64,000 nucleotides of DNA from a virus. The stretch covers positions 3,829 to 67,828 of the IMG/VR virus record IMGVR_UViG_3300029117_000001; one strand, 5' to 3'. A model generated the notes under the pieces. That model ran no database searches. It was not told where the DNA came from and saw nothing but the letters and a program-made list of their open reading frames with translations. Both the position numbers and the translations under genes were made by a program. The stretch's first letter is position 1. Each line of letters starts with the position of its first letter. Below, in pieces: positions 4,374 to 57,447 of the stretch.

Positions 4374-6068
4374 ATGGGAAAAATTACAGAAGGCTCGCTT
4401 GAATGGTATCGGGCAGTGCTGAATCAGATTATCAGTAGTGACATGACAATCTATCAAAATCAAAAAGATTGCCTTGATTTGCTCTTAAATATGAATATTG
4501 ACCTTCCTTTCAACAAGAACCAAGAATCACGGAAAATGGCTATGAAAGTAAGTCAATACTCACATAACATAGCAGAGAAGTGTGCCGCATTAACTGGAAG
4601 TGGTAATTTTGACGATATCTATTGGCAGTATTTGCTACTGGAAGCACCACATTTATTTGAAAGTTACTTGCTTTATATGGAAAAAAATAGACCGGACAGC
4701 AAGAAATTTTATATTCCACGAAAAAAAACACTGCATGTGGTAGCCAAAGACCTACAAGATTTGGAAGAAAGAAAGATAGAGTTTTACGGCTTATCACTTC
4801 CAAGCCGTGTTGGAAAATCCACTATGTGTATTTTCTTTATGTCATGGATAATGGGAAAAAGACCGAATAGTCATAGCGCCATGGGTGGTCATTCTGGAAA
4901 ACTGGCAAAAGGATTTTACGGAGAACTTCTTAACCTCATTAATACACAGGAATACAACTACAGTGAAATTTTTCCGCAATCGAAACTTCAAAAACAGAGT
5001 GCTGATGATTTTGAAATAAACCTGGACAAACCAGACCGATTTGCAACAATGACTTGCCGTGGTATTGAAGGTACTTGGACAGGTGCCGTTGATATTTCTT
5101 CTGATGGGTATTTGTACGTGGATGACCTTGTAAGAGATAGGCAACATTCATTAAGCCCTACCCGATTGGAAAATACATATCAAGAATATCTGAACAAGAT
5201 GGTTGACCGTAAGATTGATGGTGCAAGAGAACTTATGGTTGGAACCAGATGGAATTTATATGACCCTCTTGGAAAAATCGAGAAGCTAAATCGGGATAAT
5301 CCAATGTATCGGTTTAGAAAAATTCCAGCTTTGAACGATGATGGTGAATCCAATTTCGATTATGAGTATGGCGTTGGATTTTCAACAAAATATTATGTTG
5401 ATATGAAAGCTAGGCTAGACGCTAACGAATGGGAAGCTAAATATCAGCAAAAGCCCTTCTTGCGTGAAGGAATTGTGTTTGCAGCTGATGAATTGAGATA
5501 TTATAACGGCGTTCTTCCAGAAGGTGGATTTGTTAAAAATGTTTCTGCTTGCGATGTTGCGTGGGGTGGTGGCGATAGCTTATCAATGCCAGTGGGTGCA
5601 GAATACGAAAATGGAGATGTATATATTTATGATTGGATTTTTAGCACAGCACCAAAAGAAGGAACATTGCCATTAGTTGTTGGAAGAATCATGGGAAATA
5701 ATATTCAATCCATTAATTTTGAAGCAAATAATGGTGGAGATATGTATGCCTATTATGTAAACGAACGCTTGAAAGAACATAAATACGCTTGCAGCACGAC
5801 AAGTACAAAAGCACCTTCAAAACAAGCAAAAAAAGAAAAAATAAATCAATATTCCGGGGATGTTAAGCAAAATTTTATATTTTTGGCTCCGAAATATCAA
5901 GATAAACAGTATCAAAAGGCTATGGATGAATTAACTACATTCGTCTATATTGGTGATAATGAACATGATGACGCTGCCGATGGAGTTACGCAGCTTGCAA
6001 TAACGCTTGCCGGCAAAAGATTTGCAGAAGTAAAAGCAACCAAAAATTTTATGTGGGGAAGGAGATAG
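4374..6068 (+). CDS. terL: terminase large subunit
   Basis: 564 aa; Walker A-like P-loop GLSLPSRVGKST; C-terminal acidic nuclease-type residues (VGDNEHDDAADGV); lies upstream of the portal gene. Confidence 0.85.
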   Translation: MGKITEGSLEWYRAVLNQIISSDMTIYQNQKDCLDLLLNMNIDLPFNKNQESRKMAMKVSQYSHNIAEKCAALTGSGNFDDIYWQYLLLEAPHLFESYLLYMEKNRPDSKKFYIPRKKTLHVVAKDLQDLEERKIEFYGLSLPSRVGKSTMCIFFMSWIMGKRPNSHSAMGGHSGKLAKGFYGELLNLINTQEYNYSEIFPQSKLQKQSADDFEINLDKPDRFATMTCRGIEGTWTGAVDISSDGYLYVDDLVRDRQHSLSPTRLENTYQEYLNKMVDRKIDGARELMVGTRWNLYDPLGKIEKLNRDNPMYRFRKIPALNDDGESNFDYEYGVGFSTKYYVDMKARLDANEWEAKYQQKPFLREGIVFAADELRYYNGVLPEGGFVKNVSACDVAWGGGDSLSMPVGAEYENGDVYIYDWIFSTAPKEGTLPLVVGRIMGNNIQSINFEANNGGDMYAYYVNERLKEHKYACSTTSTKAPSKQAKKEKINQYSGDVKQNFIFLAPKYQDKQYQKAMDELTTFVYIGDNEHDDAADGVTQLAITLAGKRFAEVKATKNFMWGRR

Positions 6069-6071
6069 AAT

Positions 6072-6494
6072 ATGATGACTGCAACTCAATATTTACGCCA
6101 GATTGAAAATTATGATAACAGAATCAAAAACAAGCTTATCGAAGAAGAACAGCTCATTTCTCTTTCCACAAGTGTATCTGCAATTCCTGTTGGAGAAAAG
6201 GTACAAACTTCTGTAAAACGTGATCCGATGGGAGACATGATTGCGAAGATATTTGATCTGCGAGAAGAGATTTCAGAAATGATATCTGAATTTTTACAAA
6301 AAAGACAAGAAATAGTCCGAACTATAGAACAGGTTGAAGATCCATTACTATATGACATATTATTTAAGCACTATGTTGAGTACAAATCTTTGGTTCGCAT
6401 TGCAGATGAGATGGGTTATTCAGAGATTCACATTAAAAAAAAGCATTTAAAAGCCATAGCAGAAATAAAAAAGATAAAAGGTTTCGAAAGATGA
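6072..6494 (+). CDS. ArpU/RinA-like (sigma-70 region 4-like HTH) putative late transcriptional activator
   Basis: 140 aa; the C-terminus YDILFKHYVEYKSLVRIADEMGYSEIHIKKKHLKAIAEI has the sigma region 4 HTH pattern; size matches the ArpU/RinA family. Placement after terL is atypical. Confidence 0.4.
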   Translation: MMTATQYLRQIENYDNRIKNKLIEEEQLISLSTSVSAIPVGEKVQTSVKRDPMGDMIAKIFDLREEISEMISEFLQKRQEIVRTIEQVEDPLLYDILFKHYVEYKSLVRIADEMGYSEIHIKKKHLKAIAEIKKIKGFER

Positions 6495-25440: not shown

Positions 25441-25565
25441 ACCGTTAATTTTGGTAAAACCAACAGGCTAGACCGATCATCGAAAAGCGGAAATGCCTTG
25501 CCGCCTGCCTGTTGATTTACATACAGTTCAAGGCACTCTTTTATACGAAAGGCAGGTATCAATCT

Positions 25566-26783
25566 ATGGCAAGAAAACCACTTAGCAAGAAAATCAGATT
25601 TGAAGTATTCAAAAGAGACAAATTCACATGTCAATACTGTGGAAGAATGTCACCAGACGTAATTTTGGAAGTAGACCATATTGAGCCAGTAGCAGAGGGC
25701 GGGGATAATGAGATTACAAATTTAATTACTTCGTGCCGCGACTGCAATAGAGGGAAGGGCAAAACTAGAATTTTAGATTCCAAAGCAATATCGTTTCAAC
25801 AGGAAGCATTAAAAGATCTTGCAGAGAAAAAAGAACAGTTGGAAATGATTGCTGAATGGAAGAAAGAGCTACTTGATTATGATAATATGGCAGTAAACAT
25901 GCTAACGGAATATTTTGAACAATTGACAGGGTGTGATGTAAACGATAACGGACGTAAGGAAATAGGAATATGGTTAAAAAGATTTTCAGCAGATAAAATT
26001 ATGGAAGCAATGGAAAAATCTGTAAAATCATATTGTAAAGAATTTTCGTACGATGAAATTGTAATGGCATTTTCAAAAATACCAGGAGTGTGTATTAATC
26101 ACTCAAAGGGGGATAATAAGTCAAAGTATTATTTTAATTATATAAAAAAAGTTTTAACATCACGAGGAATAGAGTTCAATCCGAAACTTTTAAAATATTA
26201 TGTTGAAACATATTTGATTACAGAAGAAGATTTTGCAGCGGAAAAGAAAAGTAAACGGTATTTAAAAATATTTGTTTCATATCTACACCCCAGATTTGAT
26301 AAAGATAAATTTGCTCAAAACTATATGATGGATAAATGCTTTGTTGGGATCGCTGATATTGACGGAGAAAAGAGCATAGAAAATCTTAAATATGGGCTTG
26401 ATTTAGAAAACAAAGGTTATTTCTTTTCAGATAGATACTCTCCGAAAAATAGAGTTAGTTTGATTCCTTATCTCAATGGCTTTACAGAACTGTTAAGAGA
26501 ATATTATAGAGAATATTATCAAACATATAATGAGCCTCATCCTGTTTTAACTACCGAACAGGGATTAAGGCTTTTAAATCATTATGCGTCAAATAAATAT
26601 TGGGCGAACTGTGTTACAAAAGAAGACTATTGTAATATGTTTTCAATGCTTAAATTGAGTAAAGAATATGGTTGGAAGGAGCAAATGCCAGAAGCTATGT
26701 TTACAAGTGGTGGTACTATTTGTGACGAGAAAATTGCAGAATATGAAAGCGAGGAAAGAAAAAAGCATGATTTTCGACCTTAA
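25566..26783 (+). CDS. HNH endonuclease domain fused to a ~330-aa uncharacterised C-terminal domain
   Basis: N-terminus FEVFKRDKFTCQYCG ... EVDHIEPVAEGGDNEITNLITSCRDCNRGKG is a canonical HNH (H-N-H with a Cys4 zinc site); the remaining ~330 aa have no recognisable motif. Confidence 0.6.
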   Translation: MARKPLSKKIRFEVFKRDKFTCQYCGRMSPDVILEVDHIEPVAEGGDNEITNLITSCRDCNRGKGKTRILDSKAISFQQEALKDLAEKKEQLEMIAEWKKELLDYDNMAVNMLTEYFEQLTGCDVNDNGRKEIGIWLKRFSADKIMEAMEKSVKSYCKEFSYDEIVMAFSKIPGVCINHSKGDNKSKYYFNYIKKVLTSRGIEFNPKLLKYYVETYLITEEDFAAEKKSKRYLKIFVSYLHPRFDKDKFAQNYMMDKCFVGIADIDGEKSIENLKYGLDLENKGYFFSDRYSPKNRVSLIPYLNGFTELLREYYREYYQTYNEPHPVLTTEQGLRLLNHYASNKYWANCVTKEDYCNMFSMLKLSKEYGWKEQMPEAMFTSGGTICDEKIAEYESEERKKHDFRP

Positions 26784-38102: not shown

Positions 38103-38337
38103 TGAATGTCATAAAATCACATGATCTTTATCCCAATCTTTTTCATATCGAGCAACGGAGGAATTCTTTGGCTGGATTATTAACTCAAATAATTGCTACA
38201 AGGTTATTTAAAAGTACTAATAAAAATAGGATTGGAATATATATCGCATTCAAAAATTAGTGAAAAGTATCACCGCTGCTCGATATGAAAAAAGGTGTAT
38301 GGACTAAAATTGTGTAATAGTGAAGCTCGAATGTTTA

Positions 38338-38598: not shown

Positions 38599-38798
38599 TT
38601 ATGTGTTAGAGAGCTGCGGAAATTATAGCCTCCTTATCACGGTACAGCTATACTTGTGGTAAGGAGGTGATGTCATTATGACAGAGAATTTAATCATGGT
38701 AGGTATATTGTATAAAAAGTTTATGTTAAAGAGCATCCCATTTGGGGTGCTTTTTATTATGCACTTTTTTAACCTCAACAATGAAAGGAGAACATACA

Positions 38799-45760: not shown

Positions 45761-45935
45761 TCTCGCAAGCGTAAGTATGTACCGAAGGCTATTTCGGGAA
45801 TTAACGACTGTGGAGTGTACTTAGGATCTGTGAGTAGAGATAACTTCGGTTACTTAAAAACATACACGAAGAAACAGTAAGCGGTATTCGTGAGAATCCG
45901 CATTATCTCGATGTGAGTATGTTTGATCACATTTT
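45650..45935 (+). ncRNA. candidate TnpB omega-RNA (right-end RNA)
   Basis: Inferred from position (3' end of tnpB plus downstream stem-loops CCGAAGGCTATTTCGGG and GCGGTATTC ... GAATCCGC). Confidence 0.3.
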
Positions 45936-46581: not shown

Positions 46582-47199
46582 ATGCAAAGATTAAATAAAG
46601 TAAGATTATCCGGCAGAGCCGGGGAAATAGTATTTAGCCACGAACATTACGGAAGATACTATTACAAATTCATGCTGACAGTTATTCGTAAAAGCGGTGC
46701 AGTAGATATGTTTCCAATCGTTATAGAAGATTCCGTTGTGCGTGATAATGATTACAACGGAAAAGAAGTTGTGGTAACAGGAGCAATCAGAAGCATGGAC
46801 ACTTCTAAAAATCCAAATAAGCACCACAATGTTAGTTATATCGCAGCTGATGAAGTAGAAATCCTGGATGAACAGGTTCCAGATGGCGATATAAACAAAG
46901 TAGAGTTTATTGCCAGAAGTTGCACGAAAGAGCCATATGCAAAACTTACATCAGTAACGCACAGAAAAGTTTCAAATCTTTTTGTAGCAATTCCAAGAGA
47001 GTATTCAGAAAGAGCGGATTTTATTCGCTGTACTTTATGGGGAAAAGGTGCTGATCTGGCGGTAGAGGTTAAAAGAAATGATTACATTAAAGTAACTGGC
47101 AGGTTAATGAGCCGTGATGTTTATGTTAATGGGGAAGAAACGGAAAGTGTATATGAGATTTCCGTAAAAGAAATGGAGAAATTGGAGGATGAAGAATAA
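46582..47199 (+). CDS. SSB-like protein with two OB folds (paralog 1)
   Basis: N-terminus NKVRLSGRAGEIV ... and C-terminal ADFIRCTLWGKGADLAVEVKRNDYIKVTGRLMSRDVY ... ESVYEISV parallel the E. coli SSB segment [37 protein letters not shown] ... TEVVV. Two such units are present per polypeptide. Confidence 0.5.
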   Translation: MQRLNKVRLSGRAGEIVFSHEHYGRYYYKFMLTVIRKSGAVDMFPIVIEDSVVRDNDYNGKEVVVTGAIRSMDTSKNPNKHHNVSYIAADEVEILDEQVPDGDINKVEFIARSCTKEPYAKLTSVTHRKVSNLFVAIPREYSERADFIRCTLWGKGADLAVEVKRNDYIKVTGRLMSRDVYVNGEETESVYEISVKEMEKLEDEE

Positions 47200-47851
47200 T
47201 AAGAATAAAGTTCAGATGTATGGCGTAATAATGGATATTCAGCCAGGAACGTTTTTCAAGGACGGAGAAAAATTCGTAAGATTCTATATTGGTGCAAAGC
47301 GTACCAGTGGGAACGTAGATTTGCTTCCAGTAATTGTTGAAGAAAAGCAGACGGAAGGCTTAAAGATTGGAAAACACGTCTATGTTGAAGGAAGATACAG
47401 TTCTTCAAACAAACATGAAAGTGGAAAGTCACATTTGATTCTTAAAATCAAAGCGGAAACAATCTGGTGTGGAGATGGTGATGGGAGTGCAGAAGGTGAA
47501 AACAAAATCATTCTGGAAGGTTATCTTTGCAAGCCTCCTATTTACCGCAGAACACCAAGAGGAAAAGAAATCTGTGATTTGATGATTGCTTGCAATGAAT
47601 ATGACTTGCGAAGAACAGATTATATCCCATGTATAGCATGGTGGAAAGAAGCCAGAGAAGCTGCTGATTTCAAGGTTGGAGATTTCGTAAAAATAATCGG
47701 AAGAATCCAGAGCCGGATTTATCATAAAAAATTATCTGGTGATGAAGTAGAGCTTAGAACTGCATATGAGGTATCAATAGGGAGGATAATCGAGCATGAA
47801 GGTGGAAGTAAAAAAGATTTCGTTGGAGAATTACAAGAAGTTTCCGAGTAA
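47189..47851 (+). CDS. SSB-like protein with two OB folds (paralog 2)
   Basis: TDYIPCIAWWKEAREAADFKVGDFVKIIGRIQSRIYHKK ... AYEVSI is the same pattern; overlaps its neighbours on both sides. Confidence 0.5.
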   Translation: MKNNKNKVQMYGVIMDIQPGTFFKDGEKFVRFYIGAKRTSGNVDLLPVIVEEKQTEGLKIGKHVYVEGRYSSSNKHESGKSHLILKIKAETIWCGDGDGSAEGENKIILEGYLCKPPIYRRTPRGKEICDLMIACNEYDLRRTDYIPCIAWWKEAREAADFKVGDFVKIIGRIQSRIYHKKLSGDEVELRTAYEVSIGRIIEHEGGSKKDFVGELQEVSE

Positions 47852-49823
47852 GTCTGTAGATTTGTTTCCAAGAACAGAGATTTCTGGCAGAAACAGAGAA
47901 GGAAAATCCACATTGCAGGACGCATATTTGGACGTTCTGACAGGAAAGATGGCAAATGGTACAGAACCGACTTCTATTAGAAGAAAAGAAAATGGCTTGG
48001 AAGTGCCAAAAGTTGATGTTATAAGAGAGCTTACGCTTGCGATTGATGGAAAAGAAAAAGTGATCCGCAAAATCACAAAACAGAAGTGGAGAAAACCGAG
48101 GGGACAATCCGAAGAGGTGTTCGATGGAAATGAAACTTCTTATGAAATTGACGGATTCCCGGCTAAATCAAAGGATTATACCGAGTTCATCCAGTCAATA
48201 GCAGAACCTTCAACGCTTCTGATGTGCAGTAACCCAAAACCATTTCTGGACACATTGCAGAAGTCAACAGCAGAATCCAGAAAGGTACTGGAAAAGATGT
48301 CTGGTTTTGATATTGCACAGTTTATGGAAGAAAATCCACAGTACGCTCATGTGGAAGAAATCACAAAAGGGCATTCCGTAGAGGATACCTTGAAGAAGCT
48401 CCGAAAGGAACTGAATGCACAGAAGAAAAAGGTGGATGCCAAAAACACGGAGATTGCATATGAAACCAATCGAAGCATTGAAGCAGAAGATACTTCCTCC
48501 CTAGAATCCAAAAAACAGGAGCTTAATGCGGAGCTTTCCAAACTGGAAGAACAGGAAAAGATTCTTGAAGATTCAGCAAAAGGCTATGACAGCCTTACAT
48601 ATGAAATCCGAGGGCTGAAATCTTCCAGGGATGGACTTGTTAGCAAGGCAGATAATGAGCTGAAAGACAAGAAAGCAGCCATTATGAATGTGTATTATGA
48701 CCTTGCAAAAAATAAAATTGAAAAAGAATCAGCTATCCGAATGTTGGGAATGGAACTGGACAACCACATAAGAGCTGGGCAACAGGCGAAAGCTGACTTG
48801 GATAGAGCCAGACAGGACTATCCGAGAATCAAAGAAATGGAGTGGGATGATTCTGAACTGAAAGCTATTGAAGCTGAAACATTCAATGATTCTGATACTA
48901 TTTGCCCTACCTGTGGACAAGAGCTGCCAGAAGAACAAGTTTCCGAATTGAGAGCTTCCTTTGAAGAAAAGAAGAAGTTTAGAATTGAAAATGAATTAAC
49001 CAAAAAGCAAAACTGGGAATCAGCAAAACAGAACCAGTTGAAAGGAACTTGTGATCTTGGAAATTCTGCTGCTGCAAAATTAAAGAAAACTAACGAGGAA
49101 ATCAACAAATTACAGTCGGAAATCGGCGCAGCACAGGATGAAGTTGATGAACTTACTAAGCAGATTGAGGAAGAACAGTCCAAATTTACGGAGCTTCCAG
49201 AATCTGTAGATATGACAAATGATGAAGAATATCTTGCAGTTACAGTGAGAATTGCAGAACTTGAAGAGAAACTGAAATCATTTGATGATGTTACTGGAAA
49301 GAAACAGGAATTAAGAATGCAGATCAGCAATGTTATGAAACAGATTTCCAATGTGGATGCAGACATTAAGATTGCACAGGCAGCAGTCACAGAGAAAGAA
49401 AAGCGAGTAGCCGAACTGAATGAGGAACTGAAAAGCCTTGGACAGGTACAAGCTGATATTGAAAAGAACATTGATACCGTTCTTAACTTCTCAATCCAGA
49501 AGAATAAGGCACTGGCAGAGAAAATCAATCCATTTTTCCATCATTTTCAGTTCAGTTTCCTTGATTACACGATTGAGGGAAATCCAGTGGAGACTTGCAA
49601 GATGATCTGCAATGGAATTGATTACAACAGCGGATTGAATCATTCAGATAAGATTCTGTGTGAGGTCGATTTACTGAATGGATTACAGGAAATGAATGGG
49701 CTGAATATGCCGATTTGGATTGATGATTCGGAGAGCATTGATAAAAGCAGAATCCCTGTATTAGACAGGCAAATGATCGTACTAAGAGTGACGGACGATG
49801 ATTTGAGAGTGAGAAAAATTTAA
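47796..49823 (+). CDS. SbcC/Rad50/SMC-like ATPase (recombination/repair)
   Basis: Walker A GRNREGKST at the N-terminus; about 400 aa of coiled coil; a central Cys-x2-Cys zinc-hook-like motif (ICPTCGQELPEEQ); C-terminal signature and Walker B/D-loop region (LNMPIWIDDSESID). Confidence 0.65.
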   Translation: MKVEVKKISLENYKKFPSKSVDLFPRTEISGRNREGKSTLQDAYLDVLTGKMANGTEPTSIRRKENGLEVPKVDVIRELTLAIDGKEKVIRKITKQKWRKPRGQSEEVFDGNETSYEIDGFPAKSKDYTEFIQSIAEPSTLLMCSNPKPFLDTLQKSTAESRKVLEKMSGFDIAQFMEENPQYAHVEEITKGHSVEDTLKKLRKELNAQKKKVDAKNTEIAYETNRSIEAEDTSSLESKKQELNAELSKLEEQEKILEDSAKGYDSLTYEIRGLKSSRDGLVSKADNELKDKKAAIMNVYYDLAKNKIEKESAIRMLGMELDNHIRAGQQAKADLDRARQDYPRIKEMEWDDSELKAIEAETFNDSDTICPTCGQELPEEQVSELRASFEEKKKFRIENELTKKQNWESAKQNQLKGTCDLGNSAAAKLKKTNEEINKLQSEIGAAQDEVDELTKQIEEEQSKFTELPESVDMTNDEEYLAVTVRIAELEEKLKSFDDVTGKKQELRMQISNVMKQISNVDADIKIAQAAVTEKEKRVAELNEELKSLGQVQADIEKNIDTVLNFSIQKNKALAEKINPFFHHFQFSFLDYTIEGNPVETCKMICNGIDYNSGLNHSDKILCEVDLLNGLQEMNGLNMPIWIDDSESIDKSRIPVLDRQMIVLRVTDDDLRVRKI

Positions 49824-50005
49824 ATAAAAAGTCAAAAAGCATAGGTGCCGTTGTATGGCAATGAAAGTTGCCACTATACCAAAATATATGATTGTAAAGA
49901 ACGAAAAATCAAAGAACATCTAAATACAAAAAATCAACGAATAACACAGTATAGAACAATTCTCATTGCTATACACAGGCACCTATGCAGAAACAGGAGG
50001 GGAAA

Positions 50006-50452
50006 ATGCTAACAGCAACATGGGGAAAACATTTTTTCAAAGCGGATGCTACAAAATGTGCTTCTGAAATCATGGAAATTTGCGATCAGATGGAATCTGC
50101 TACACCACAGCAGATTCTTGAAAAAGCAAGGGATGAAAGCACAGAATTACATAAATGCTTCACATGGGATGATTCCATAGCAGCTGAAAAATACAGAATC
50201 CACGAAGCCAGACAGATTATTTGTCAGTTAAAAATCGTGGAACAGGATATTGATGATAAGCCAAAGCCGACAGCAATTCGAGTGTTTTACAAGACAGATG
50301 GGAAAAGCGGATACAAGCCAACACAGCTTATTTTAAAACAGCCAGATGAATACGAAGCACTTTTAGAGCGTTGCCGGAATGAACTTCTGTCAGTGAAGCA
50401 GAAATACCAGAATATTTCCGAATACGAAGAAGTTTGGGAATTGATTAATTAA
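50006..50452 (+). CDS. hypothetical protein
   Basis: RBS AAACAGGAGGGGAAAATG. Confidence 0.4.
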   Translation: MLTATWGKHFFKADATKCASEIMEICDQMESATPQQILEKARDESTELHKCFTWDDSIAAEKYRIHEARQIICQLKIVEQDIDDKPKPTAIRVFYKTDGKSGYKPTQLILKQPDEYEALLERCRNELLSVKQKYQNISEYEEVWELIN

Positions 50453-51478
50453 ATATTGAGGCCGCTACTGTGCTGATATGCCTACAGGAGTAGGAAGAAA
50501 TCAAACTATATTATGGCACATTATATTGCTAAATAGGACAATACATAATATCACAGAGCACAGCAAAACACCTTATTCTTGTAGGGACATGAGTGCAGTA
50601 GCGGCGAAATTCCTACGTTGATATGCCTGTAAAACAGGCAAGTAAAGTACAGGAAAAAACAGAACGCCACAAGACAACACAGGATAGTTCGAAACAGAAT
50701 ATTCGCTTGATTTTACAGGTTTATGAGCGTAGGAAACCACAGCATTTATCAGTCTGCATAAGCGGAACAAAACTTCACGAAAGTATAACACAGTAAAAAA
50801 GACAAAAGAATAGCATATGACATTGCAGAATACTTTCACTGTTTATGCAGAGCGACAAGTGTTGTGACACTTAATAAAAAATAGCATATGAAACTATAGG
50901 AAATAAAACGGAAGAACAACAGATTACACACAGCACTTACCGGATGGGCTGTTTTGTAGGCGGTATAAATCGTCAAGACAGAACACTACAGTACAACACA
51001 ATACAAAACACAACATATGACTTTTATATCGTCTATAAAGCAGCCCTCTAAAATCTGAATATTGGGTAGGTGACATGAGATGTCACAGCAAAGAACAGGA
51101 TAGCACATTATATTACAAAACAAGACATTACAGAACACTTCATGTTACCTACCGAGTATTCAACACCAAGTGTATTTAGTTGGCAGTAGAAACTGTCATA
51201 ATAGGAAACCATAAAATCTTATATGTGAGAACAAAATAATACAGTAAACAATAGCACAACACAAGACAAGCTTTCTACTGCTTGCTAAGTGCATTTGGAG
51301 TTTGCACAAAGATTTAAGCGGATTATTTCGCAGAACAGAAAATTGTAGCACAGTTAAGAATAGTACAATATAGAACAAGATAGCACAAAACATTAATTGT
51401 ATATTGTAAATAATCCGTTTAAGTGTTTGTACAAACAAAAACTATAAATAAAATCATTTGTTTTAGGAGGAAAACAAC
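50453..51478. repeat. ~1 kb ORF-poor, A+C-rich non-coding region with many iteron-like repeats (candidate origin or regulatory hub)
   Basis: Recurrent (A/G)ATAG(N)ACAA motifs (AGGATAGCACA, GAATAGTACAATATAGAACAAGATAGCACAAAAC, ATAGCATATGA twice), perfect palindrome GTGACATGAGATGTCAC, flanking inverted repeat GGCCGCTACTGTGC/GCAGTAGCGGC; G-poor on the + strand. Confidence 0.55.
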
Positions 51479-52156
51479 ATGGCAAAAAACATCACAATCG
51501 AACCTTTAAAGGAAACTACATTAAGAGTTGAGTTAATCGGGGACACAGACCTCATTCTTCACAAGAGAAGCCGCTACTACGAACAGGCTGAATGCTTCAA
51601 GCAGTCCAAAGACAAGGGCTTCAAAATGCCAGCTATTTACAATCAGCCCAAGAATGTTTGGGAGGGATTAATCACTGGTATTCACTGGGAGAAACCGATT
51701 AATTTCCATGATGAAGATATTTCCCTTTACACAGAGGAAGAGTGGAAAGATTACATGGCAAACAACAGACCTTGCATTCTTACTCAGGCATTCAAGAAGT
51801 CATTCACAGAAACATTTATTACTTTCTTCAAGGATTCTACAGGAAAGAAAGGAACAGATATTAAGCGTTCTCTTTCAATCGAAGGCTCTATTTGCCCGGT
51901 AAACTTTGAATCTGTTGAGGTAGTAAATAAGATCGTTCCGACCTCTGGAATCAGTGCAAGCCCGGTTCTTTGTAGCAGCAATGTGTTCCATAATTGGCGA
52001 ACCACCATTGAGGTATCTTGCCCGGACATTGTATTTCCATATGAGACAGTATTACAGCTGATTGAAACCAGCGGAAAGTACATCGGAATCGGAACACAGA
52101 GAGCAAATGGAAACGGAAGATATCACATCAACCCGGACAATGTAACAATCATTTAA
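51479..52156 (+). CDS. hypothetical protein (225 aa)
   Basis: Strong RBS AGGAGGAAAACAACATG; no recognisable motif. Confidence 0.45.
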   Translation: MAKNITIEPLKETTLRVELIGDTDLILHKRSRYYEQAECFKQSKDKGFKMPAIYNQPKNVWEGLITGIHWEKPINFHDEDISLYTEEEWKDYMANNRPCILTQAFKKSFTETFITFFKDSTGKKGTDIKRSLSIEGSICPVNFESVEVVNKIVPTSGISASPVLCSSNVFHNWRTTIEVSCPDIVFPYETVLQLIETSGKYIGIGTQRANGNGRYHINPDNVTII

Positions 52157-52458
52157 TTAGGTAACTATCGGTGGTATATGAATCCGAATAAAGTCGGAAA
52201 ACAACAAACCGAACTAATCGAAAGAACAGGATAGAACAATACAGTACATAAAAAACATTTATCCTGTTTCATATGTCACTGAGCATAACTCTTGGGTGCA
52301 TTCACGGTGGATTAAATTCTTATCAGAATAGGACACTATAACAAACGAGACAATATTAGAGAATAGAACAAAATATAGCAAAACATATCACAAACTGATT
52401 TTGACCCACTTTGTATGCACCTAAGAGAAAAATATAAAAAAGAAAAAGGAGAATTAAA

Positions 52459-53406
52459 ATGGCAGGAAAAACACAGTTAGCAACAACAGGAGAACAACAG
52501 GCGGCAATTGTAATTAACAACTCATTCATTGATGGATTGGTTAAGCAGCTTGAAAAAAAATGCGAATATGGTCTTTCGTTCCCAAAAGACTACAACCTAA
52601 GCAATGCGCTCATGGGGGCGTATCTGATTCTGAAAGAAACAAAAGACAGAAATAATAAGCCAATTCTGGAATCTTGCACATCCACAAGCATTGCAAACAG
52701 TCTTATGAACATGGCAACACTTGGTCTTTCAGTGCAGAAAAAGCAAGGATATTTTATTTCTTACGGAAATCAGTGTCAGTTCCAGAGGTCTTACTTCGGA
52801 AACATTACAATAGCCAGAAGATACGGAATGAAAGATATTCACGCCGAGATCATCTACCAAGGAGATAAGTTCAAATACCACATTGAAGATGGAAACAAGG
52901 TACTTGATTCCCACGAACAGGACTTTATGAATATTGATAATGATAAAATTCTTGGCGCATATGCAGTAGTGCTGATGGAAGATGGAACAAAGCATTTGGA
53001 AGTAATGAACATGAAGCAGATCAAACAATCTTGGTTACAGGGCTATGGGTACAAAGAAAACGGCAATGGAACGCATCAGAAATTCACTGACCAGATGGCA
53101 AAGAAAACAGTTATCAATCGTGCATTAAAGCAGATTATCAACAGCCACGGTGATGTTTTTGTACAGGAAGCTGACGAGAATACAGAGGATATTCCAAAAC
53201 AGGATATTATTGAACAAGACGTTGCTTATGAAATTAGTGAGAACGCAAACACAGAAGAATTCATTCCACAACCAGAAGTAATCGAAGAAAAGCCAAAGCA
53301 GCCAACCGTAGCCGAAACCGTAAAAACAACAGAGAAAGAACCAGTTCCGGCAGCAGAGCCAGTGGAAACAGAAATTCCGTCATTTATGAGCCAGGAGGAA
53401 ATGTAG
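52459..53406 (+). CDS. recT: RecT-family single-strand annealing recombinase
   Basis: Central region ILGAYAVV ... QMAKKTVINRALK characteristic of RecT/Red-beta; acidic C-terminal tail; strong RBS AAAAGGAGAATTAAAATG. Confidence 0.7.
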   Translation: MAGKTQLATTGEQQAAIVINNSFIDGLVKQLEKKCEYGLSFPKDYNLSNALMGAYLILKETKDRNNKPILESCTSTSIANSLMNMATLGLSVQKKQGYFISYGNQCQFQRSYFGNITIARRYGMKDIHAEIIYQGDKFKYHIEDGNKVLDSHEQDFMNIDNDKILGAYAVVLMEDGTKHLEVMNMKQIKQSWLQGYGYKENGNGTHQKFTDQMAKKTVINRALKQIINSHGDVFVQEADENTEDIPKQDIIEQDVAYEISENANTEEFIPQPEVIEEKPKQPTVAETVKTTEKEPVPAAEPVETEIPSFMSQEEM

Positions 53407-53881: not shown

Positions 53882-54481
53882 ATGAATGAAATTTTAAAGA
53901 AAGCAAAAGAACGGGTTGAACTTTTAGAGAAGCAGGAGAAAAGTGGGAAAATCAAATTATCAGAGTTGAACCCTGGTGATGTATTCCAAACTACAGGTAA
54001 AAGAAAATACAAAGTGTTGGAACAGTATGAAAATACCACCAAGATAGTTTCTTTTGACCTTGTAAAAGAAAATGTAAAATTCGGGGATAATGCAGATTAT
54101 TTAGAGTCTGAATTAAAAGAACTTTGTGACACGGAAATTTTAGCGAATTTTGAAGAGGAATTTGGTGCGGAGAATATTGAAACACATGAAGCAGATCTTA
54201 TTACGGTCGACGGTCAGAATACAGGCGTTTCGGTGAAATGTAAAATCAGACCTCTTACATTTGATGAAGCAAGAAAATATACGGAATTAACTCCGAACAA
54301 AAAACTTAATGACTGGTATTGGACATGTACATCTTGGTCAACAAAAGAACGCGGATGGAGTAGCGTTGCCGTTGTTTCCTCCTCGGGTAGCGTCAGCTAC
54401 TTTAACCGCATCAGTGACATCGGTGTTCGCCCAGTTTGTATCTTAAAATCTAATCTCTTTGTATCTAAAGTGGAGGAATAA
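53882..54481 (+). CDS. DGR target protein 1 (DUF1566 / C-type-lectin-fold variable protein) carrying VR1
   Basis: C-terminus ...WYWTCTSWST ... SVAVVSSSGSVSYFNRISDIGVRPVCI; the DNA at 54368-54442 is homologous to the TR with differences mostly at TR adenines. Confidence 0.7.
   Translation: MNEILKKAKERVELLEKQEKSGKIKLSELNPGDVFQTTGKRKYKVLEQYENTTKIVSFDLVKENVKFGDNADYLESELKELCDTEILANFEEEFGAENIETHEADLITVDGQNTGVSVKCKIRPLTFDEARKYTELTPNKKLNDWYWTCTSWSTKERGWSSVAVVSSSGSVSYFNRISDIGVRPVCILKSNLFVSKVEE
54368..54442 (+). repeat. DGR variable repeat 1 (VR1)
   Basis: 75-bp homolog of the TR; about 9 differences, 8 of them at TR adenines and one T-to-C, plus a 3' IMH-like divergence. Confidence 0.7.
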
Positions 54482-54483
54482 AA

Positions 54484-55080
54484 ATGAAAAAAGATTTGAA
54501 ATATTTTGAGACAGAAATAAAAAGAATTACAGAGGAATTCGAGGATTACAAAAAGAAACACATGGGCACTCCGAAACCCGGGGAAGTGGTTGAAATTTCC
54601 GGTATGGAATGGATAATACTGGACAAGCTTCCGGATGGATATTTTGCAATTTTAAATAGTTTTTATGGTAAAACAAGAATGTTTGATTCAGATTCCAGCA
54701 ATTGGAAAGAAAGTTCTTTAAGAGAAGAATTAAACACATCATTTTTAGAAAAAATTAATACGCCTTTCGATGGAAATGCAGTTGTTGAATTTGACCGTAA
54801 CCTGTTGGCATTGGACGGGCAGACTGAATATGGAACTTGTAGAGATAAGATTTCACTCTTAACCGTGGATGAATACAGAAAATACAGGAAATATTTGCCA
54901 AATATGGATAAATGGTGGTGGCTTATTACACCATGGAGTACACCTTACAATGATTATTTTAAGAGCGTAGCCGTTGTTTCCTCCTCGGGTTACGTCGACT
55001 ACGGTAACTGCTACGATGTCTGCGGTGTTCGCCCAGTTTGTATCTTTTCCTCTTCAATCTTTGAATCAGACGAGGATTAA
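54484..55080 (+). CDS. DGR target protein 2 (DUF1566 / C-type-lectin-fold variable protein) carrying VR2
   Basis: Paralog of target 1; C-terminus KWWWLITPWST ... SVAVVSSSGYVDYGNCYDVCGVRPVCIF; VR2 at 54970-55044. Confidence 0.75.
   Translation: MKKDLKYFETEIKRITEEFEDYKKKHMGTPKPGEVVEISGMEWIILDKLPDGYFAILNSFYGKTRMFDSDSSNWKESSLREELNTSFLEKINTPFDGNAVVEFDRNLLALDGQTEYGTCRDKISLLTVDEYRKYRKYLPNMDKWWWLITPWSTPYNDYFKSVAVVSSSGYVDYGNCYDVCGVRPVCIFSSSIFESDED
54970..55044 (+). repeat. DGR variable repeat 2 (VR2)
   Basis: Every VR2/TR difference in the body of the repeat (about 11) maps to a TR adenine (A to T or G); the 3'-terminal CAACCTG/CAGTTTG difference looks like IMH versus IMH*. Confidence 0.8.
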
Positions 55081-55082
55081 TA

Positions 55083-55454
55083 ATGGCAAATGAAGATTTA
55101 CAGGTGATAATAAAAGCCAAGCAGTTAGCAAAGCACACGCTTATAGTAACCAGTAACGCGAGGAGATATCCTAAGAAATTCAGATTTTCTTTAGTTGATA
55201 AAATGAAGAACAAATCGCTCGAAATACACGCTAAGCTCTTTGAAGCCAATCGAACAAATTTGAAAGATTATAAGAGAGAAAGGCTAGAATTACAGACAAA
55301 AGCAATTACATATTGTGATGAACTTCTCTTTTATATAGAGCTTTCATACGAGCTTAATATCATTAATTCGGGAAGTATGGAGACATGGTCGAAAATGGTT
55401 ACAGATATTAAGCATATGGCGATTGCTTGGAGAACAAAAGACAGAAACAGATGA
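55083..55454 (+). CDS. avd: DGR accessory variability determinant (Avd-like small basic helical protein)
   Basis: 123 aa, basic, predicted helical; located between the VR gene and the TR exactly as in Bordetella phage BPP-1 (mtd-avd-TR-brt). Confidence 0.6.
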   Translation: MANEDLQVIIKAKQLAKHTLIVTSNARRYPKKFRFSLVDKMKNKSLEIHAKLFEANRTNLKDYKRERLELQTKAITYCDELLFYIELSYELNIINSGSMETWSKMVTDIKHMAIAWRTKDRNR

Positions 55455-55478
55455 TTTTTATAGGTTATGCGTTGTAGA

Positions 55479-55553
55479 GCCGTTGTTTCCTCCTCGGGTA
55501 ACGTCAACAACAATAACTGCAACAATGACAACGGTGTTCGCCCAACCTGTATC
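55479..55553 (+). repeat. DGR template repeat (TR)
   Basis: Adenine-rich (AACGTCAACAACAATAACTGCAACAATGACAAC) non-coding copy of the VRs, 24 nt after avd and 95 nt before the RT gene. Confidence 0.8.
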
Positions 55554-55648
55554 ACAGGCAGACAGAGTAAGCAGAAAGCTGAAATCCGAATAGATACAAG
55601 CAAATGCATAACCTTTCCGCAATGGATAAATATAAAGGAACAAAATAA

Positions 55649-56695
55649 ATGGATAAAGAAATTGTGGCAAATTTTGAAAACTTGTATTCATCTTACAAAC
55701 GAGTTAAGGCAGATAAGAAATTCAATTCCGGCACTGCCAGGTTTTCTATTATGGCGTTGGAAGGAATCCAAACATTGAAGGAACAATTGGAAAATCAAAC
55801 GTATTCCATAGCACCGTATAATAAATTCAAAATATATGAGCCGAAAGAACGCATCATAGAATCGTGTTCTTTCAAAGACAAGACGGTACAGAGATGCTTT
55901 TCAGACTACATTCTTACGCCGAAATTAAATAATATTTTTATAAAATGGAACACAGCAGGACAAATCGGAAAAGGTCATTATATGGCAATGGATGGTCTGC
56001 GAGATCATATGTTGGAATTTTACAGTAAAAATGGTTTAAATGGCTGGATTGTAAAATGCGATATTCGTAAATATTTTTACAGCATAGATCATGAAATCAT
56101 GAAAGACGTGGTGGATTACTATTTTGATGATGAATTTACAGTATGGTTAAATCATCTATTTATTGACAGCGCCGAAAATCCAGGACTTCCACTTGGAAAT
56201 CAAGTTAATCAGAAATACGCTTTACTGTTACTGCATTCGTTGGATCAAATGATAACAATTGAATACGGAATACAGCATTACGGAAGGTATAATGATGATT
56301 TCTATGTGATTTGTAAAAGTAAAGAAGAAGCCAGAGAAATACTTGAAGCTATCCGGATTATGACCGAAAGCCTTAAAATACAATTGAATACTAAATCACA
56401 GATTGTGCCATTTAGAATGGGATTGTGCTATCTTGGCTTTCACCATTATGTAACCTCCGATGGGAAATATATTAGAAAACTTCGAGGAGATAAAAAAAGA
56501 AAAACACACAGGAAGATTCGAAATTGGATTAGAGCTGTGAATAATGGCGAAATGACAGAAGAAAAATTTCAAGAAAAATATAATGCGTGTAAAAACAATA
56601 TGCTGCATGGGAATTGTATTAAATTATGCCACAGCATGGATTTGGATGTTAAGAAAAGAATGAAAAGAGGTGATGAAAAATGTTCATGCGAGTAG
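55649..56695 (+). CDS. DGR reverse transcriptase
   Basis: Motif-by-motif parallel to BPP-1 bRT: FKIYEPKERIIESCSFKDKTVQRC (compare FLVYEPKPRLISALEFKDRLVQHA), KCDIRKYFYSIDHE (KSDFSKFFPSIDRA), GLPLGNQVNQ (GIPIGSLTSQ, the DGR-specific replacement of QGxxxSP), RYNDDFYV (RYMDDIVV, YxDD), MGLCYLGFHHY (RGINFLGYRIW). Confidence 0.85.
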   Translation: MDKEIVANFENLYSSYKRVKADKKFNSGTARFSIMALEGIQTLKEQLENQTYSIAPYNKFKIYEPKERIIESCSFKDKTVQRCFSDYILTPKLNNIFIKWNTAGQIGKGHYMAMDGLRDHMLEFYSKNGLNGWIVKCDIRKYFYSIDHEIMKDVVDYYFDDEFTVWLNHLFIDSAENPGLPLGNQVNQKYALLLLHSLDQMITIEYGIQHYGRYNDDFYVICKSKEEAREILEAIRIMTESLKIQLNTKSQIVPFRMGLCYLGFHHYVTSDGKYIRKLRGDKKRKTHRKIRNWIRAVNNGEMTEEKFQEKYNACKNNMLHGNCIKLCHSMDLDVKKRMKRGDEKCSCE

Positions 56696-57447
56696 TAAAC
56701 ACAGGAAGTACCCATGGAAACTGCTATGTTCTGAAATCAAACACAGGAGAAATACTTCTTCTGGACTGCGGATGCAGATACAAAGACATTCTAAGAGCTA
56801 TTGATTACAGAACAAGTGATGTTTCTGGCGTATTGCTTAGTCATGAGCATGGAGATCACATCAAATCATTTCGGGAACTGATGAACGCCGGCATTCAGAT
56901 TTACACCAATGATGAAACCGTGGAACATCTGCAAATCATCACTGGTGAGCTGATGAAAGGTGTTCCAGAGAAAAGACCATTTCGGGTTGGCTCGTTTACA
57001 GTAATACCGTTCTATTTGCCACATACTACAAGGGACAAGGATACAGGGCAACTTATTCCGTGTTTCAATTATGGGTATATCGTGGAACATAAAGAGATGG
57101 GAAAGCTGTTGTATATGACAGACTTTGAGTTTTGCCGATACAATTTCAAGGCAATGCGACTGAACCACTTGGTTATTGAGTGCAACTATTGTGGAGAATT
57201 GGTTGACAAAACAGCCGAAAATTACACGCACAGGCTTAAAGGGCATTGTTCATTAGATACTTGCAAAAGCTTAGTAAATACGAACCATACGGCAGCATTA
57301 CGGACAGTAACATTGGTGCATTTGAGTAATGAAGCAGCTGACCCGGAACAGATTTTGAGGGAGATACAAGAAACGTCTGGTGCTGATGCACTCGTCCATA
57401 TCGCAACACCCGGGTTAGAAGTTAATTTGGACTTATGTCCATTTTGA
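56680..57447 (+). CDS. metallo-beta-lactamase-fold hydrolase (possible phage recombination or processing nuclease)
   Basis: HxHxDH motif LSHEHGDHIK plus downstream His/Asp residues; overlaps the RT stop by 16 nt (translational coupling). Confidence 0.65.
   Translation: MFMRVVNTGSTHGNCYVLKSNTGEILLLDCGCRYKDILRAIDYRTSDVSGVLLSHEHGDHIKSFRELMNAGIQIYTNDETVEHLQIITGELMKGVPEKRPFRVGSFTVIPFYLPHTTRDKDTGQLIPCFNYGYIVEHKEMGKLLYMTDFEFCRYNFKAMRLNHLVIECNYCGELVDKTAENYTHRLKGHCSLDTCKSLVNTNHTAALRTVTLVHLSNEAADPEQILREIQETSGADALVHIATPGLEVNLDLCPF

Follow-up and report, generated by a model that had tools for sequence, protein, structure and literature searches.

The three repeat-bearing intergenic regions of the 64-kb stretch of viral DNA analyzed here (the window) come from a gut phage of roughly 80 kb and form, with a probability that we put at about 85%, a VIPR-type locus for the RNA-guided recognition of DNA. 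The repeat blocks would be arrays of 10–11 predicted guide RNAs of about 105–150 nt each, and these would represent a new, adenine-based variant of VIPR. The evidence comprises RNA-type structure and covariation, a pentamer code, a RAMP-fold protein, target matches with a 1-nt skip in codon phase, and the lack of self-matches.

VIPR (Viral Interference Programmable Repeat), known for example from Escherichia phage SUSP1, combines the proteins Vipr and Vap with vrRNAs of roughly 100 nt. Its description dates from 2026 and presents it as a minimal RNA-guided DNA binder that needs no PAM, can be reprogrammed, and may be an ancestor of CRISPR; seven types and about 670 Vipr proteins have been published (bioRxiv 10.64898/2026.04.26.720920 and 10.64898/2026.04.26.720927, 2026). 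Its vrRNAs carry 9–16 pentamers, each with three conserved bases followed by two variable ones (NN), and read double-stranded DNA with a 1-nt skip; the targets are rival phages, and the skip falls at the wobble position (bioRxiv 10.64898/2026.04.26.720920 and 10.64898/2026.04.26.720927).

Organization of the Locus

The repeats occupy positions 49824–50005 (block 1), 50453–51478 (block 2), and 52157–52458 (block 3). All three regions share an A/C-rich motif framed by inverted repeats on a G-poor + strand, as the original prediction had stated, and matches of a long-hairpin scan across the window cluster in the same places. The inverted repeats, first described as 8–11 bp long, proved to be imperfect stems of about 25–32 bp that are formed by the 5′ and 3′ flanks of each unit and are unit-specific. 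Block 2, which had been read as a single bracketed unit with about 800 bp of scattered copies behind it, is instead made up of seven back-to-back hairpin units and an extra periodic tract (50871–50930), and block 3 contains two units, 3a and 3b. The features of the locus are as follows.

49839–49988, + strand: block 1, vrRNA-like unit; stem 49839–49870/49957–49988, loop tract 49871–49960 with 18 A-Y-A-N-N pentamers; inverted repeat I1; fold −48.2 kcal/mol, z −9.07
50006–50452, + strand: p148, candidate accessory (Vap-like) protein, always directly upstream of the large array
50461–50605, + strand: unit A, stem and 17-pentamer tract 50493–50577; z −7.31; covarying helices 1–2
50610–50735, + strand: unit B, stem and tract 50634–50713 of about 14–16 pentamers; z −6.77; covarying helix 3
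50738–50866, + strand: unit C, stem and tract 50760–50844 of about 15 pentamers; z −6.00; covarying helix 4
50857–50938, + strand: C′ (tentative), 12-pentamer tract 50871–50930 from the phase scan
About 50946–51046, + strand: unit D, stem and tract 50968–51022 of 9–11 pentamers; z −8.31; helix 6
51056–51162, + strand: unit E, stem and tract with a core of 11 pentamers at 51085–51139; z −6.73; helix 7
51166–51298, + strand: unit F, stem and tract 51191–51275; z −6.06; helix 8
51300–51436, + strand: unit G, stem and tract 51330–51394 of about 13 pentamers; z −6.21; helix 9
51479–52156, + strand: p225, RAMP-fold, Vipr-like candidate effector
52168–52283, + strand: unit 3a, outer stem, small inner hairpin, and tract 52216–52260 of 7–9 pentamers; z −5.69
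52291–52425, + strand: unit 3b, stem and tract 52318–52397 of 14–16 pentamers; z −4.37

The palindrome GTGACATGAGATGTCAC and the duplicated GATATGCCT, which had been singled out as separate elements, are present in block 2 but are parts of the stems of units E, A, and B. Units A and B have the stem motif GATATGCC/GGTTTATGAG in common; a repeat finder detected no repeat common to the units, and each stem is different. The tentative unit C′ has a possible 10-bp closing stem (50857–50866/50929–50938), which was read by eye and overlaps the 3′ arm of unit C; RNAalifold preferred a small local hairpin at this place (helix 5).

The arrangement is conserved. Six to eight hairpins were found in all 55 distinct regions orthologous to block 2, and the order p148–array–p225, with guide units on both outer sides, was kept in 61 of 61 related loci for which positions could be assigned to the two genes. 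The same gene–array–gene order also occurs in more distant phages, in which p225 is 62–65% identical. The blocks lie among genes for a single-stranded DNA-binding protein (SSB), an SbcC-like protein, and RecT in a co-directional operon, and no Rep, initiator, or Par gene was found among the neighboring genes. Apart from a lone RAMP protein, the locus lacks Cas-like proteins: cas1, cas2, other cas genes, and a CRISPR repeat–spacer array are absent from it. Rfam searches of the repeat region at gathering and permissive thresholds returned nothing except a chance match to a miRNA precursor, with no CRISPR entries, and a tRNA search of the same region found none. No match to cultured phages was obtained by blastn. 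Promoters and terminators were not enriched inside the arrays, where 4 promoter-like sites were found against 9.6 expected.

Pentamer Code in the Loops

The repeats in the loops have a strict period of 5 nt. The autocorrelation of C was 2.0-fold at lags of 5, 10, 15, and 20 and 0.3-fold at lags of 1, 4, 6, and 9. Each pentamer has the consensus A-Y-A and then two free, hypervariable positions (A-Y-A-N-N, or A-N-N-A-Y in the published VIPR register), and the 11-nt iteron (A/G)ATAG-N-ACAA that had been proposed amounts to two adjacent pentamers of this period. Loops consist of 51% A and 13.5% G, in keeping with the G-poor strand noticed earlier. Tracts comprise 9–18 pentamers in a single phase, and this register is kept over 213 distinct loops, while the loop sequences are hypervariable between near-identical phages. 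When an in-phase run was defined as at least five of eight A-Y-A-N-N pentamers in 40 nt, ten places in the 64-kb window qualified, and 10 of 10 fell inside these intergenic regions. Together with the period-5 signal, this places the motif frequency above expectation, which had been named beforehand as the check that could overturn the original prediction.

Folding and Covariation of the Stems

Ten units were folded and compared with shuffled sequences; z-scores ranged from −4.4 to −9.1, and none of 200 shuffles folded equally well. In the aligned stems, 98.9% of the cells were paired, compared with only 38–47% when the partner was slid by 1–3 columns as a control. Compensatory pairs numbered 33, against 21.1 ± 2.2 in shuffles, and this count was reached in 0 of 500 shuffles. 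The stem cells contained 972 G-U pairs and 61 A-C pairs (16:1), and therefore the sense strand is the strand that folds. The suggestion of stem-loop-flanked regulatory RNAs in the original prediction pointed in the right direction.

Candidate Proteins p225 and p148

The predicted product p225 has a RAMP fold with an RRM core, a glycine-rich loop, and a thumb, and its gene does not lie in a CRISPR-cas locus. Among solved structures, the type III subunits Cmr6, Csm3, Cmr4, and Cas7-11 have the closest folds. Alignment of the p225 family with the experimentally characterized SUSP1 Vipr (ALH47069) by hhalign gave a weak match (probability 75.7%; E value, 2.4e-5) over 96 columns in the C-terminal half, including the glycine loop; a tblastn search of p225 against cultured phages returned nothing significant. 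On this remote sequence similarity, p225 is probably a minimal RAMP protein related to Vipr. In the alignment, T206 and Q207 of p225 are placed opposite D177 and W178 of SUSP1 Vipr, glycine-loop residues that are said to contact guanines (bioRxiv 10.64898/2026.04.26.720920 and 10.64898/2026.04.26.720927). This replacement fits with p225 reading an A-Y-A handle. The original prediction had named the product of 51479–52156 as a possible repeat-binding protein; the RAMP fold and the resemblance to SUSP1 Vipr make such binding very likely, but the predicted ligand is RNA, not DNA. The second protein, p148, shows no resemblance to the described Vap proteins and is unrelated to Vap1; by position only, it is a candidate accessory partner of p225.

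Matches between Predicted Guides and Putative Targets

The concatenated NN dinucleotides of each guide were compared with targets of the form NN-x-NN-x, that is, with a 1-nt skip. Matches of at least 0.90 were obtained for seven guides with a skip of 1 and for none with a skip of 0 or 2, compared with 0–1 for shuffled guides. At a score of at least 17, 26 of 267 (then 272) extended guides matched sibling DNA, whereas shuffled guides gave 0, 0, and 0 (then 1, 1, and 1) matches. Against seven Heliusvirales genomes, 20 guides reached a score of at least 16, versus 0 and 0 shuffled guides. Nearly all matches lie in codon phase 0 of long ORFs, with the skipped base at the wobble position, and all matches found are on the coding strand, in the same sense as the mRNA. 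Single matches usually include one or two mismatched dinucleotides.

In sibling phages, the targets are the C-terminus of the SbcC-like gene, RecT and other annealases, and even alleles of the vipr gene itself. The NN string of block 1 matched the 3′ codons of the SbcC-like allele in loci L054, L128, and L217, with 10 of the first 12 dinucleotides perfect and 22 of 24 bases matched. Against the window's own SbcC-like allele, the same guide did no better than the null level, with 18 of 26 bases matched. This allele is in turn matched by guides of sibling phages at the following site.

49707–49745, + strand: target site in the window's own SbcC-like gene

A sibling guide found in six loci (L014:1070-1134) matched this site at 11 of 12 dinucleotides in codon phase 0, and a further one (L016:2446-2510) matches it likewise. 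The guide of unit 3b matched N-terminal codons of the RecT alleles in loci L024 and L026, with 11 of 13 dinucleotides perfect; the alleles in L033, L127, L135, and L141 reached the same score with nine perfect and two half-matched dinucleotides. The window's own RecT was matched at about 17 of 26 bases by hand count. No window guide had a match above the null level in its own window.

The targets in Candidatus (Ca.) Heliusvirales, which are unrelated phages of Lachnospiraceae, are family-A DNA polymerase (PolA) and a gp2.5-like SSB. The 15-dinucleotide guide of unit F (TA GG CC AA TT TG GA AA AT GT CA GC AC AG AG) matched the polymerase codons for YGPK[FL]VENIVQATSR at 26–28 of 30 bases in six bacterial genomes and at 26–27 of 30 bases in Ca. 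Heliusvirales gut phages, and its sibling version (L038) matched 13 consecutive dinucleotides in Agathobacter phage NatCom_6238. In metagenomic copies of the polymerase target, the skipped base varies freely and positions 1 and 2 of the codon are kept. A wobble-blind code of this kind explains how one guide can cover many synonymous variants of a conserved protein motif.

The searches yielded no target for seven of the eleven window guides; tiling of the entire sibling pan-genome (5.8 Mb) and of the seven Heliusvirales genomes revealed none for units A–E, G, C′, and 3a. Exact scans of IMG/VR with 11 dinucleotides of unit E and 10 of unit F revealed no target, and neither did a scan of GTDB genomes with 10 exact dinucleotides of unit A, whose guide is identical in 14 loci. 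An 8-dinucleotide seed of unit A gave 17 matches in IMG/VR, none of which could be extended.

Alternative Explanations

The original prediction had considered a replication origin, a partition site, or a centromere. At such a site, double-stranded iterons would be bound by an initiator or a ParB-like protein, and the inverted repeats would help to unwind the DNA or extrude cruciforms. The position of the blocks among the SSB, SbcC-like, and RecT genes and their repeated non-coding motifs would suit this reading. However, a 5-nt period with two of five positions free is not a helical repeat, and the compensatory stem changes and the strand-specific 16:1 excess of G-U over A-C would be meaningless for duplex DNA. 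The loops are hypervariable between near-identical phages, unlike binding sites of a conserved protein; the neighboring gene encodes a RAMP protein rather than an initiator or Par protein; and the in-phase codon matches, which follow a 5-to-3 code (pentamer to codon), would be left unexplained. We consider this proposal extremely improbable. A protein-titrating or structural RNA is also highly unlikely, even though the loops are unstructured, closed by stems, and built from ACA triplets with 2-nt spacers, as expected if they wrapped an ACA-binding oligomer such as a TRAP-like ring or served as a decoy for an ACA-cutting MazF toxin. The spacers would then be uninformative, but they match coding sequences with a 1-nt skip, in codon phase and far above shuffled guides, and the adjacent protein has a RAMP fold rather than that of TRAP, Hfq, or an antitoxin. 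The informative dinucleotides also led us to drop an Hfq/CsrA-type sponge, primase or single-strand initiation sites (CTG/CTA) on the minus strand, and a link to the downstream DGR. DGR mutagenesis randomizes adenines, which are the constant positions here.

Stems of 25–30 bp between genes of one co-directional operon, where internal promoters and terminators are not enriched, could be ordinary intercistronic processing or stability hairpins, such as the RNase III sites of the T7 early region, and slippage would then account for the drift of their low-complexity loops. This is very unlikely because seven consecutive hairpins occupy 1 kb without an intervening gene, the single-phase pentamer register is strict over 213 distinct loops, guide–target matches exist, and the link to the RAMP gene is kept across divergent phages; processing at the stems may well occur, in which case it would be a part of guide maturation. 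An RNA-guided system of the same general kind could also act on RNA, as type III CRISPR RAMPs do, and the closest solved folds of p225 are indeed type III subunits. All matches are mRNA-sense, however, and therefore the guide cannot pair with the target mRNA but only with the template DNA strand or an antisense RNA; in addition, the characterized VIPR binds double-stranded DNA. RNA targeting thus appears to be a slight possibility. A CRISPR-Cas array was rejected, as the units have no identical direct repeats between them, Rfam gave no CRISPR match, and there are no cas genes besides the lone RAMP.

Proposed Mechanism and Significance

For the VIPR-type locus favored here, we infer transcription, processing, RNP assembly, DNA binding, and the outcome for the target as follows. 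The arrays would be transcribed on the + strand with the surrounding early genes, and each unit would fold so that a conserved stem of about 25–30 bp closes a single-stranded loop of 9–18 A-Y-A-N-N pentamers. One p225 protomer may bind each pentamer, sequestering A-Y-A and leaving its variable dinucleotide exposed. Taken in succession, these dinucleotides would pair with one target DNA strand with a 1-nt skip, reading codon positions 1 and 2 and ignoring the wobble position. The presumed effect on the rival phage, whether co-infecting or resident, is that its target gene is silenced or damaged once bound. Guides beside a gene would be aimed at alternative alleles of that gene in sibling phages, and guides of the large array at replication genes of the unrelated Lachnospiraceae phages (Ca. 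Heliusvirales).

It is an even bet, in our judgment, that this locus represents a distinct, undescribed VIPR type in which the RAMP protein reads A-Y-A instead of GGY, the guides are unit-specific and closed by stems, and each guide is physically coupled to an allele that it leaves alone and directed against the alternative alleles of the same gene in siblings, in the manner of a “poison–antidote”-like allele exclusion. If true, allele exclusion could be the force behind the extreme diversity of recombination-gene alleles that marks this phage family. A guanine-free handle would mean that the pocket with which Vipr recognizes its handle can evolve, and the A-Y-A handle with its protein would give engineers a second, orthogonal pair. 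The stem-closed format hints that guides mature by another route. In the human gut, an abundant family of roughly 80-kb phages would carry up to eleven guides per phage, some directed against conserved polymerase motifs in Lachnospiraceae prophages of the Heliusvirales and others against alternative alleles of neighboring genes in siblings. With this target pattern, it becomes testable whether the mosaicism and allele turnover of phage modules for replication and recombination are driven by RNA-guided interference.

Comparison with Known Systems

Iteron-type origins and partition sites likewise have short repeats that cluster in non-coding stretches close to replication or recombination genes. 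The present locus differs from them in its 5-nt period, strand-specific RNA-type covariation, hypervariable content, and lack of an initiator or Par protein. The backbones of class 1 CRISPR-Cas systems (Cas7, Csm3, or Cmr4 on crRNA) have the RAMP fold with its glycine loop in common with p225, and in both cases an oligomer is thought to bind the guide RNA at a fixed nucleotide period, with pairing interrupted periodically. However, the period is 5 with two of five bases pairing here, whereas it is 6 with five of six pairing in CRISPR. The locus is phage-borne, has neither a repeat–spacer array nor cas1/cas2, and provides each guide with its own flanking stem.

The closest likeness is to VIPR. 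Both are phage-borne two-gene loci with a small RAMP protein and long flanking intergenic regions that hold several RNAs of roughly 100 nt, which are predicted in the present case. Both have pentamer tracts (9–16 pentamers in VIPR and 9–18 here) with three conserved and two hypervariable positions, and in both, the targets that the dinucleotides match are mostly coding sequences, with a 1-nt skip that falls on the wobble position, here by computational matching. Self-targets are lacking in both, the targets are rival phages and include other VIPR genes, and the glycine-loop region of p225 aligns with that of SUSP1 Vipr. The SUSP1 locus and its GGYNN tracts were located for direct comparison, and the SUSP1 locus folded without enclosing stems. 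Published vrRNA consensuses all keep G (YNNGG, NNNGG, YNNNG, and NNNNG) (bioRxiv 10.64898/2026.04.26.720920 and 10.64898/2026.04.26.720927). Whereas the published triplet is G-G-Y and all variants retain at least the last G, the conserved triplet here is A-Y-A, with no conserved G. The vrRNAs of the SUSP1 clade have a common 3′ tail with a pseudoknot, in contrast to the long, unit-specific closing stems found here. The gene order also differs, with the accessory gene followed by an array of 7–8 guides and then the RAMP gene, as does the accessory protein, since p148 is unrelated to Vap1. All matches found here fall on the coding strand, in contrast to the two strands reported in the preprint, and many guides of this phage family target allelic variants of neighboring genes in sibling phages.

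Genomic context of the intergenic blocks

The window covers most of a phage genome of approximately 80 kb with 37% G + C, and nearly all genes lie on the + strand; its relatives are human-gut IMG/VR contigs of 75–85 kb. The three intergenic regions analyzed (block 1, 49824–50005; block 2, 50453–51478; block 3, 52157–52458) alternate with the following genes.

47796–49823, SbcC/Rad50-like ATPase gene, bordering block 1
50006–50452, unnamed 148-aa gene (p148), between blocks 1 and 2
51479–52156, unnamed 225-aa gene (p225), between blocks 2 and 3
52459–53406, RecT gene, after block 3

Directly upstream of the SbcC-like ATPase, 46582–47851 encodes two SSB paralogues in tandem, of 205 and 220 aa, each extended at the N-terminus by about 100 aa (phrog_26861). 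Three structured RNAs matched Rfam at gathering level.

448–516, tRNA (ARAGORN: Cys, anticodon 'aca')
25461–25533, int-alpA RNA (45.4 bits), just ahead of an ORF of 423 aa (25512–26783)
45807–45880, RAGATH-18 RNA (57.7 bits)

RAGATH RNAs are associated with ribozyme-linked genes.

Tandem hairpin units and sense-strand folding

The repeat blocks in the three regions are real and highly non-random. The repeat search advised in the original prediction returned more than short inverted repeats, as imperfect arms of 24–32 nt, 76–86 nt apart, were found in series across all three regions: block 1 has a single pair, block 2 (1026 nt) is filled by seven pairs placed back to back, and block 3 has two units. 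Inverted repeats are therefore present as predicted, but they are the long arms of tandem hairpin units instead of short bracketing repeats. A long-range hairpin scan of the whole window gave hits clustered in these regions, with 38139–38292 as the sole unrelated exception. This lone hairpin (22-nt arms, 110-nt loop, not A/C-rich) sits in a 575-nt gap preceding the gene at 38678, in the one stretch of the window where strand usage is mixed. Every unit folded far better than its shuffled versions (z −4.4 to −9.1; 0/200 shuffles as good).

Sixty-three related loci were retrieved with p225. Their p148–p225 spacers (794–1237 nt) always folded into 6–8 tandem hairpins; the block-1 hairpin occurs in some siblings, and in others the spacer there is about 20 nt. 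In a 47-sequence alignment, the stems were nearly invariant, whereas the loops differed even among phages with 100% identical p225, periodic adenines alone being conserved. The RNAalifold consensus of 155 pairs was paired in 98.9% of cells, and 33 pairs had changed on both sides compared with 21.1 ± 2.2 in column shuffles (0/500 reached 33). When partners were slid by 1–3 columns as a control, pairing fell to 38–47% and 4–11 both-side-changed pairs were left. More distant phages, one of them a temperate phage of about 40 kb, retain the module with entirely different stem sequences and p225 at 62–65% identity. Stem cells included 972 G-U and 61 A-C combinations, and the + strand folded more stably than the − strand (−299 vs. 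−245 kcal/mol); therefore, the folding molecule is the sense strand. Most simply, it is an RNA co-transcribed with the neighbouring genes; a scan for promoters and terminators inside the arrays revealed no enrichment.

The pentamer code of the loops

Loops collected from 55 distinct orthologous regions (213 distinct loops; 51% A, 13.5% G) showed a sharp 5-nt period, with C autocorrelation at 2.0 times expectation at lags 5, 10, 15, and 20 and 0.3 times at lags 1, 4, 6, and 9. The repeated unit is A-Y-A-N-N: an A follows the pyrimidine in 77–84% of cases and precedes it in 67–73%, and the two positions that follow are almost unconstrained. Every loop consists of 9–18 pentamers in one unbroken phase. 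In-phase runs are confined to ten places in the 64-kb window, all of them hairpin loops within the three blocks, and a weaker eleventh tract lies at 50871–50930. The proposed iteron, (A/G)ATAG-N-ACAA, proved to be two neighbouring pentamers of this period. An origin or partition site, which the original prediction had also offered, is not supported, since a pentamer code and sense-strand folding were found instead. Its other option, stem-loop-flanked RNAs, was a good guess in view of the covarying stems and the folding of the sense strand.

A complete diversity-generating retroelement occupies 53882–56695, 1.5 kb downstream of the guide region.

53882–54481 and 54484–55080, two target genes (DUF6273)
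54363–54433 and 54965–55035, variable repeats
55083–55454, Avd-sized ORF
about 55474–55545, template repeat
55649–56695, reverse transcriptase

Its variable repeats depart from the template mostly at template adenines. The element was ruled out as the source of guide variability because adenines are the constant positions of the guides. A gene at 56680–57447 encodes a metallo-beta-lactamase-fold hydrolase with a weak, sub-threshold Pfam match to anti-Pycsar Apyc1 (E 5e-4; 19.9 bits vs. a cutoff of 50), possibly an anti-defence nuclease.

Guide matches in sibling phages

The NN strings of all tracts were searched as extended guides with local scoring against sibling-phage DNA, allowing a 1-nt skip so that the target reads NNx. 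At a score of at least 17, 26 of 267 real guides matched compared with 0, 0, and 0 in three shuffled sets; at 15 or more, the counts were 35/267 and 1, 3, and 5. With the database enlarged to 5.8 Mb (272 guides), 26 still scored at least 17, vs. 1, 1, and 1 shuffled. The matches are non-collinear, 5-nt guide units falling on 3-nt target units, and therefore cannot have arisen by ordinary homology or duplication. With few exceptions, they occupy the coding strand of long ORFs in phase 0, and the skipped base is thus the wobble base.

In L003-type phages (16 loci), a guide located downstream of p225 matches an alternative annealase gene, of 277 aa, in L005-type phages (11/12 NN, 23/24 bases), and L005-type phages hold a guide matching RecT; targeting would thus be reciprocal. 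For guides at the block-1 position, the match is to the final codons of SbcC-like alleles (up to 12/12 NN), and one guide family (15 loci) matches a vipr-like gene of another clade. At L103:8045 and L076:10391, two large-array sibling guides match 471- and 481-aa ORFs without a homologue in the window, which appear to be accessory genes of only some siblings; one of these matches falls at the Walker-A motif GDAGTGKTTV.

Candidate targets of the window's own guides

Natural targets were identifiable for 3 of the 11 window guides. The block 1 guide (49871–49960) matches the SbcC-like allele of three siblings (L054, L128, and L217) at 22/24 bases over the first 12 NN, but its own allele (49707–49745) at only 18/26, which is the null level. 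That own site is itself matched by guides of six sibling loci (11/12 NN). Unit 3b in block 3 (52318–52397) matches the RecT alleles of L024 and L026 (11/13 NN) and, in other siblings such as L033, 9 NN perfectly with two half-matched; its match to the window's own RecT is poor. No self-match above null was found in the window. Units A–E, G, and the tentative C′ of block 2 and unit 3a of block 3 had no target in the 5.8-Mb sibling pan-genome or seven Heliusvirales genomes.

In a seed scan of GTDB genomes with unit F of block 2, 6 of 11 seed matches extended to 26–28/30 bases, all six in a family-A DNA polymerase (PF00476, E 8e-21) at the codons of YGPK[FL]VENIVQATSR, just before motif C. Across eleven metagenome contigs, codon positions 1–2 of this site are the same and wobble bases vary freely. 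Neither the window nor its siblings encode a polymerase of this type. Among cultured phages, its nearest carriers are temperate members of Ca. Heliusvirales that infect Blautia, Faecalimonas, Agathobacter, Coprococcus, and Dorea. Against seven such genomes, 20/272 guides scored at least 16 vs. none in either of two shuffled sets. Several guides cluster at three polymerase sites, and the L038 version of unit F has 13 consecutive NN matched. Guides of more distant phages match the gp2.5-like SSB/annealase, and one matches a more upstream gene of that module. The large central array looks directed at other phage families sharing Lachnospiraceae hosts, which suggests the host range of the window phage itself. 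In all seven genomes (L390–L396), a 'MazF-like growth inhibitor' is also annotated within the replication module, close to the genes for polymerase and helicase. ACA is a classic MazF cleavage motif, and the guide loops are single-stranded and ACA-rich; a putative counter-measure role is conceivable.

Allele diversity

Among siblings with 100% identical p225 (L001–L063, compared at positions about 300–2500 and 4950–6200), SbcC-like alleles are 29–92% identical, and the RecT slot after the guide units is filled by RecT itself (about 315 aa), by a 277-aa annealase with 31% identity to RecT, or by a 273-aa annealase, so that at least three types occur there. From these sequences we infer that guides may adjoin the allele they spare and aim at siblings' alternative alleles in the same position. 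Such a pattern would be expected were RNA-guided interference among co-infecting siblings to favour the replacement of alleles, a guide being passed on together with the allele that resists it.

Comparison with VIPR

VIPR, described in two 2026 preprints, combines a minimal RAMP encoded by the phage (Vipr, about 20 kDa) with an accessory gene, vap, and is flanked by intergenic regions coding for vrRNAs of about 100 nt, each built of 9–16 pentamers with conserved GGY and hypervariable NN; hammerhead-interspersed vrRNA arrays are also mentioned (bioRxiv 10.64898/2026.04.26.720920, 10.64898/2026.04.26.720927). Each Vipr protomer takes one pentamer and flips out its GGY, exposing NN for pairing with DNA reading NNx (a 1-nt skip). 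In nature, rival phages, satellites, and prophages are targeted, and most sites lie in coding DNA and place the skipped base at wobble; self-targets were not found, and the repeat variants reported are NNNGG, YNNNG, and NNNNG (bioRxiv 10.64898/2026.04.26.720920, 10.64898/2026.04.26.720927). Published Vipr proteins form seven clades. We placed the SUSP1 locus at KT454805.2, 27500–29510, minus strand, with four (GGYNN)14–17 tracts.

Annotation gave p225 no Pfam domain and no informative name. Its confident AlphaFold model (pLDDT 90, pTM 0.82) predicts a RAMP protein, and profile comparison with SUSP1 Vipr gave a weak match (75.7% probability, E 2.4e-5) that spans the 96 C-terminal columns and takes in the glycine loop. 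The suggestion that this product binds the repeats was a good one, although as a predicted RAMP binder of the guides. p148 is unrelated to SUSP1 Vap1.

By analogy with VIPR and from the in-silico code test, guides would be transcribed, processed at the stems, and assembled into RNPs that bind DNA. Because every match has the mRNA sense, a guide could pair with the template DNA strand and not with mRNA, which argues for DNA recognition, as in SUSP1. We estimate a probability of about 0.85 that the locus is a VIPR-type system. Unlike published VIPR, its handle is the G-free A-Y-A, and the guanine-contacting D177/W178 of SUSP1 Vipr correspond to T206/Q207 in p225, as far as the weak alignment indicates. 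A unit-specific closing stem also replaces the common 3′ tail. Because the G-containing handle and the common 3′ tail are both defining features of VIPR as published, the locus is best regarded as a putative new adenine-handle variant of VIPR rather than as one of the types already described.
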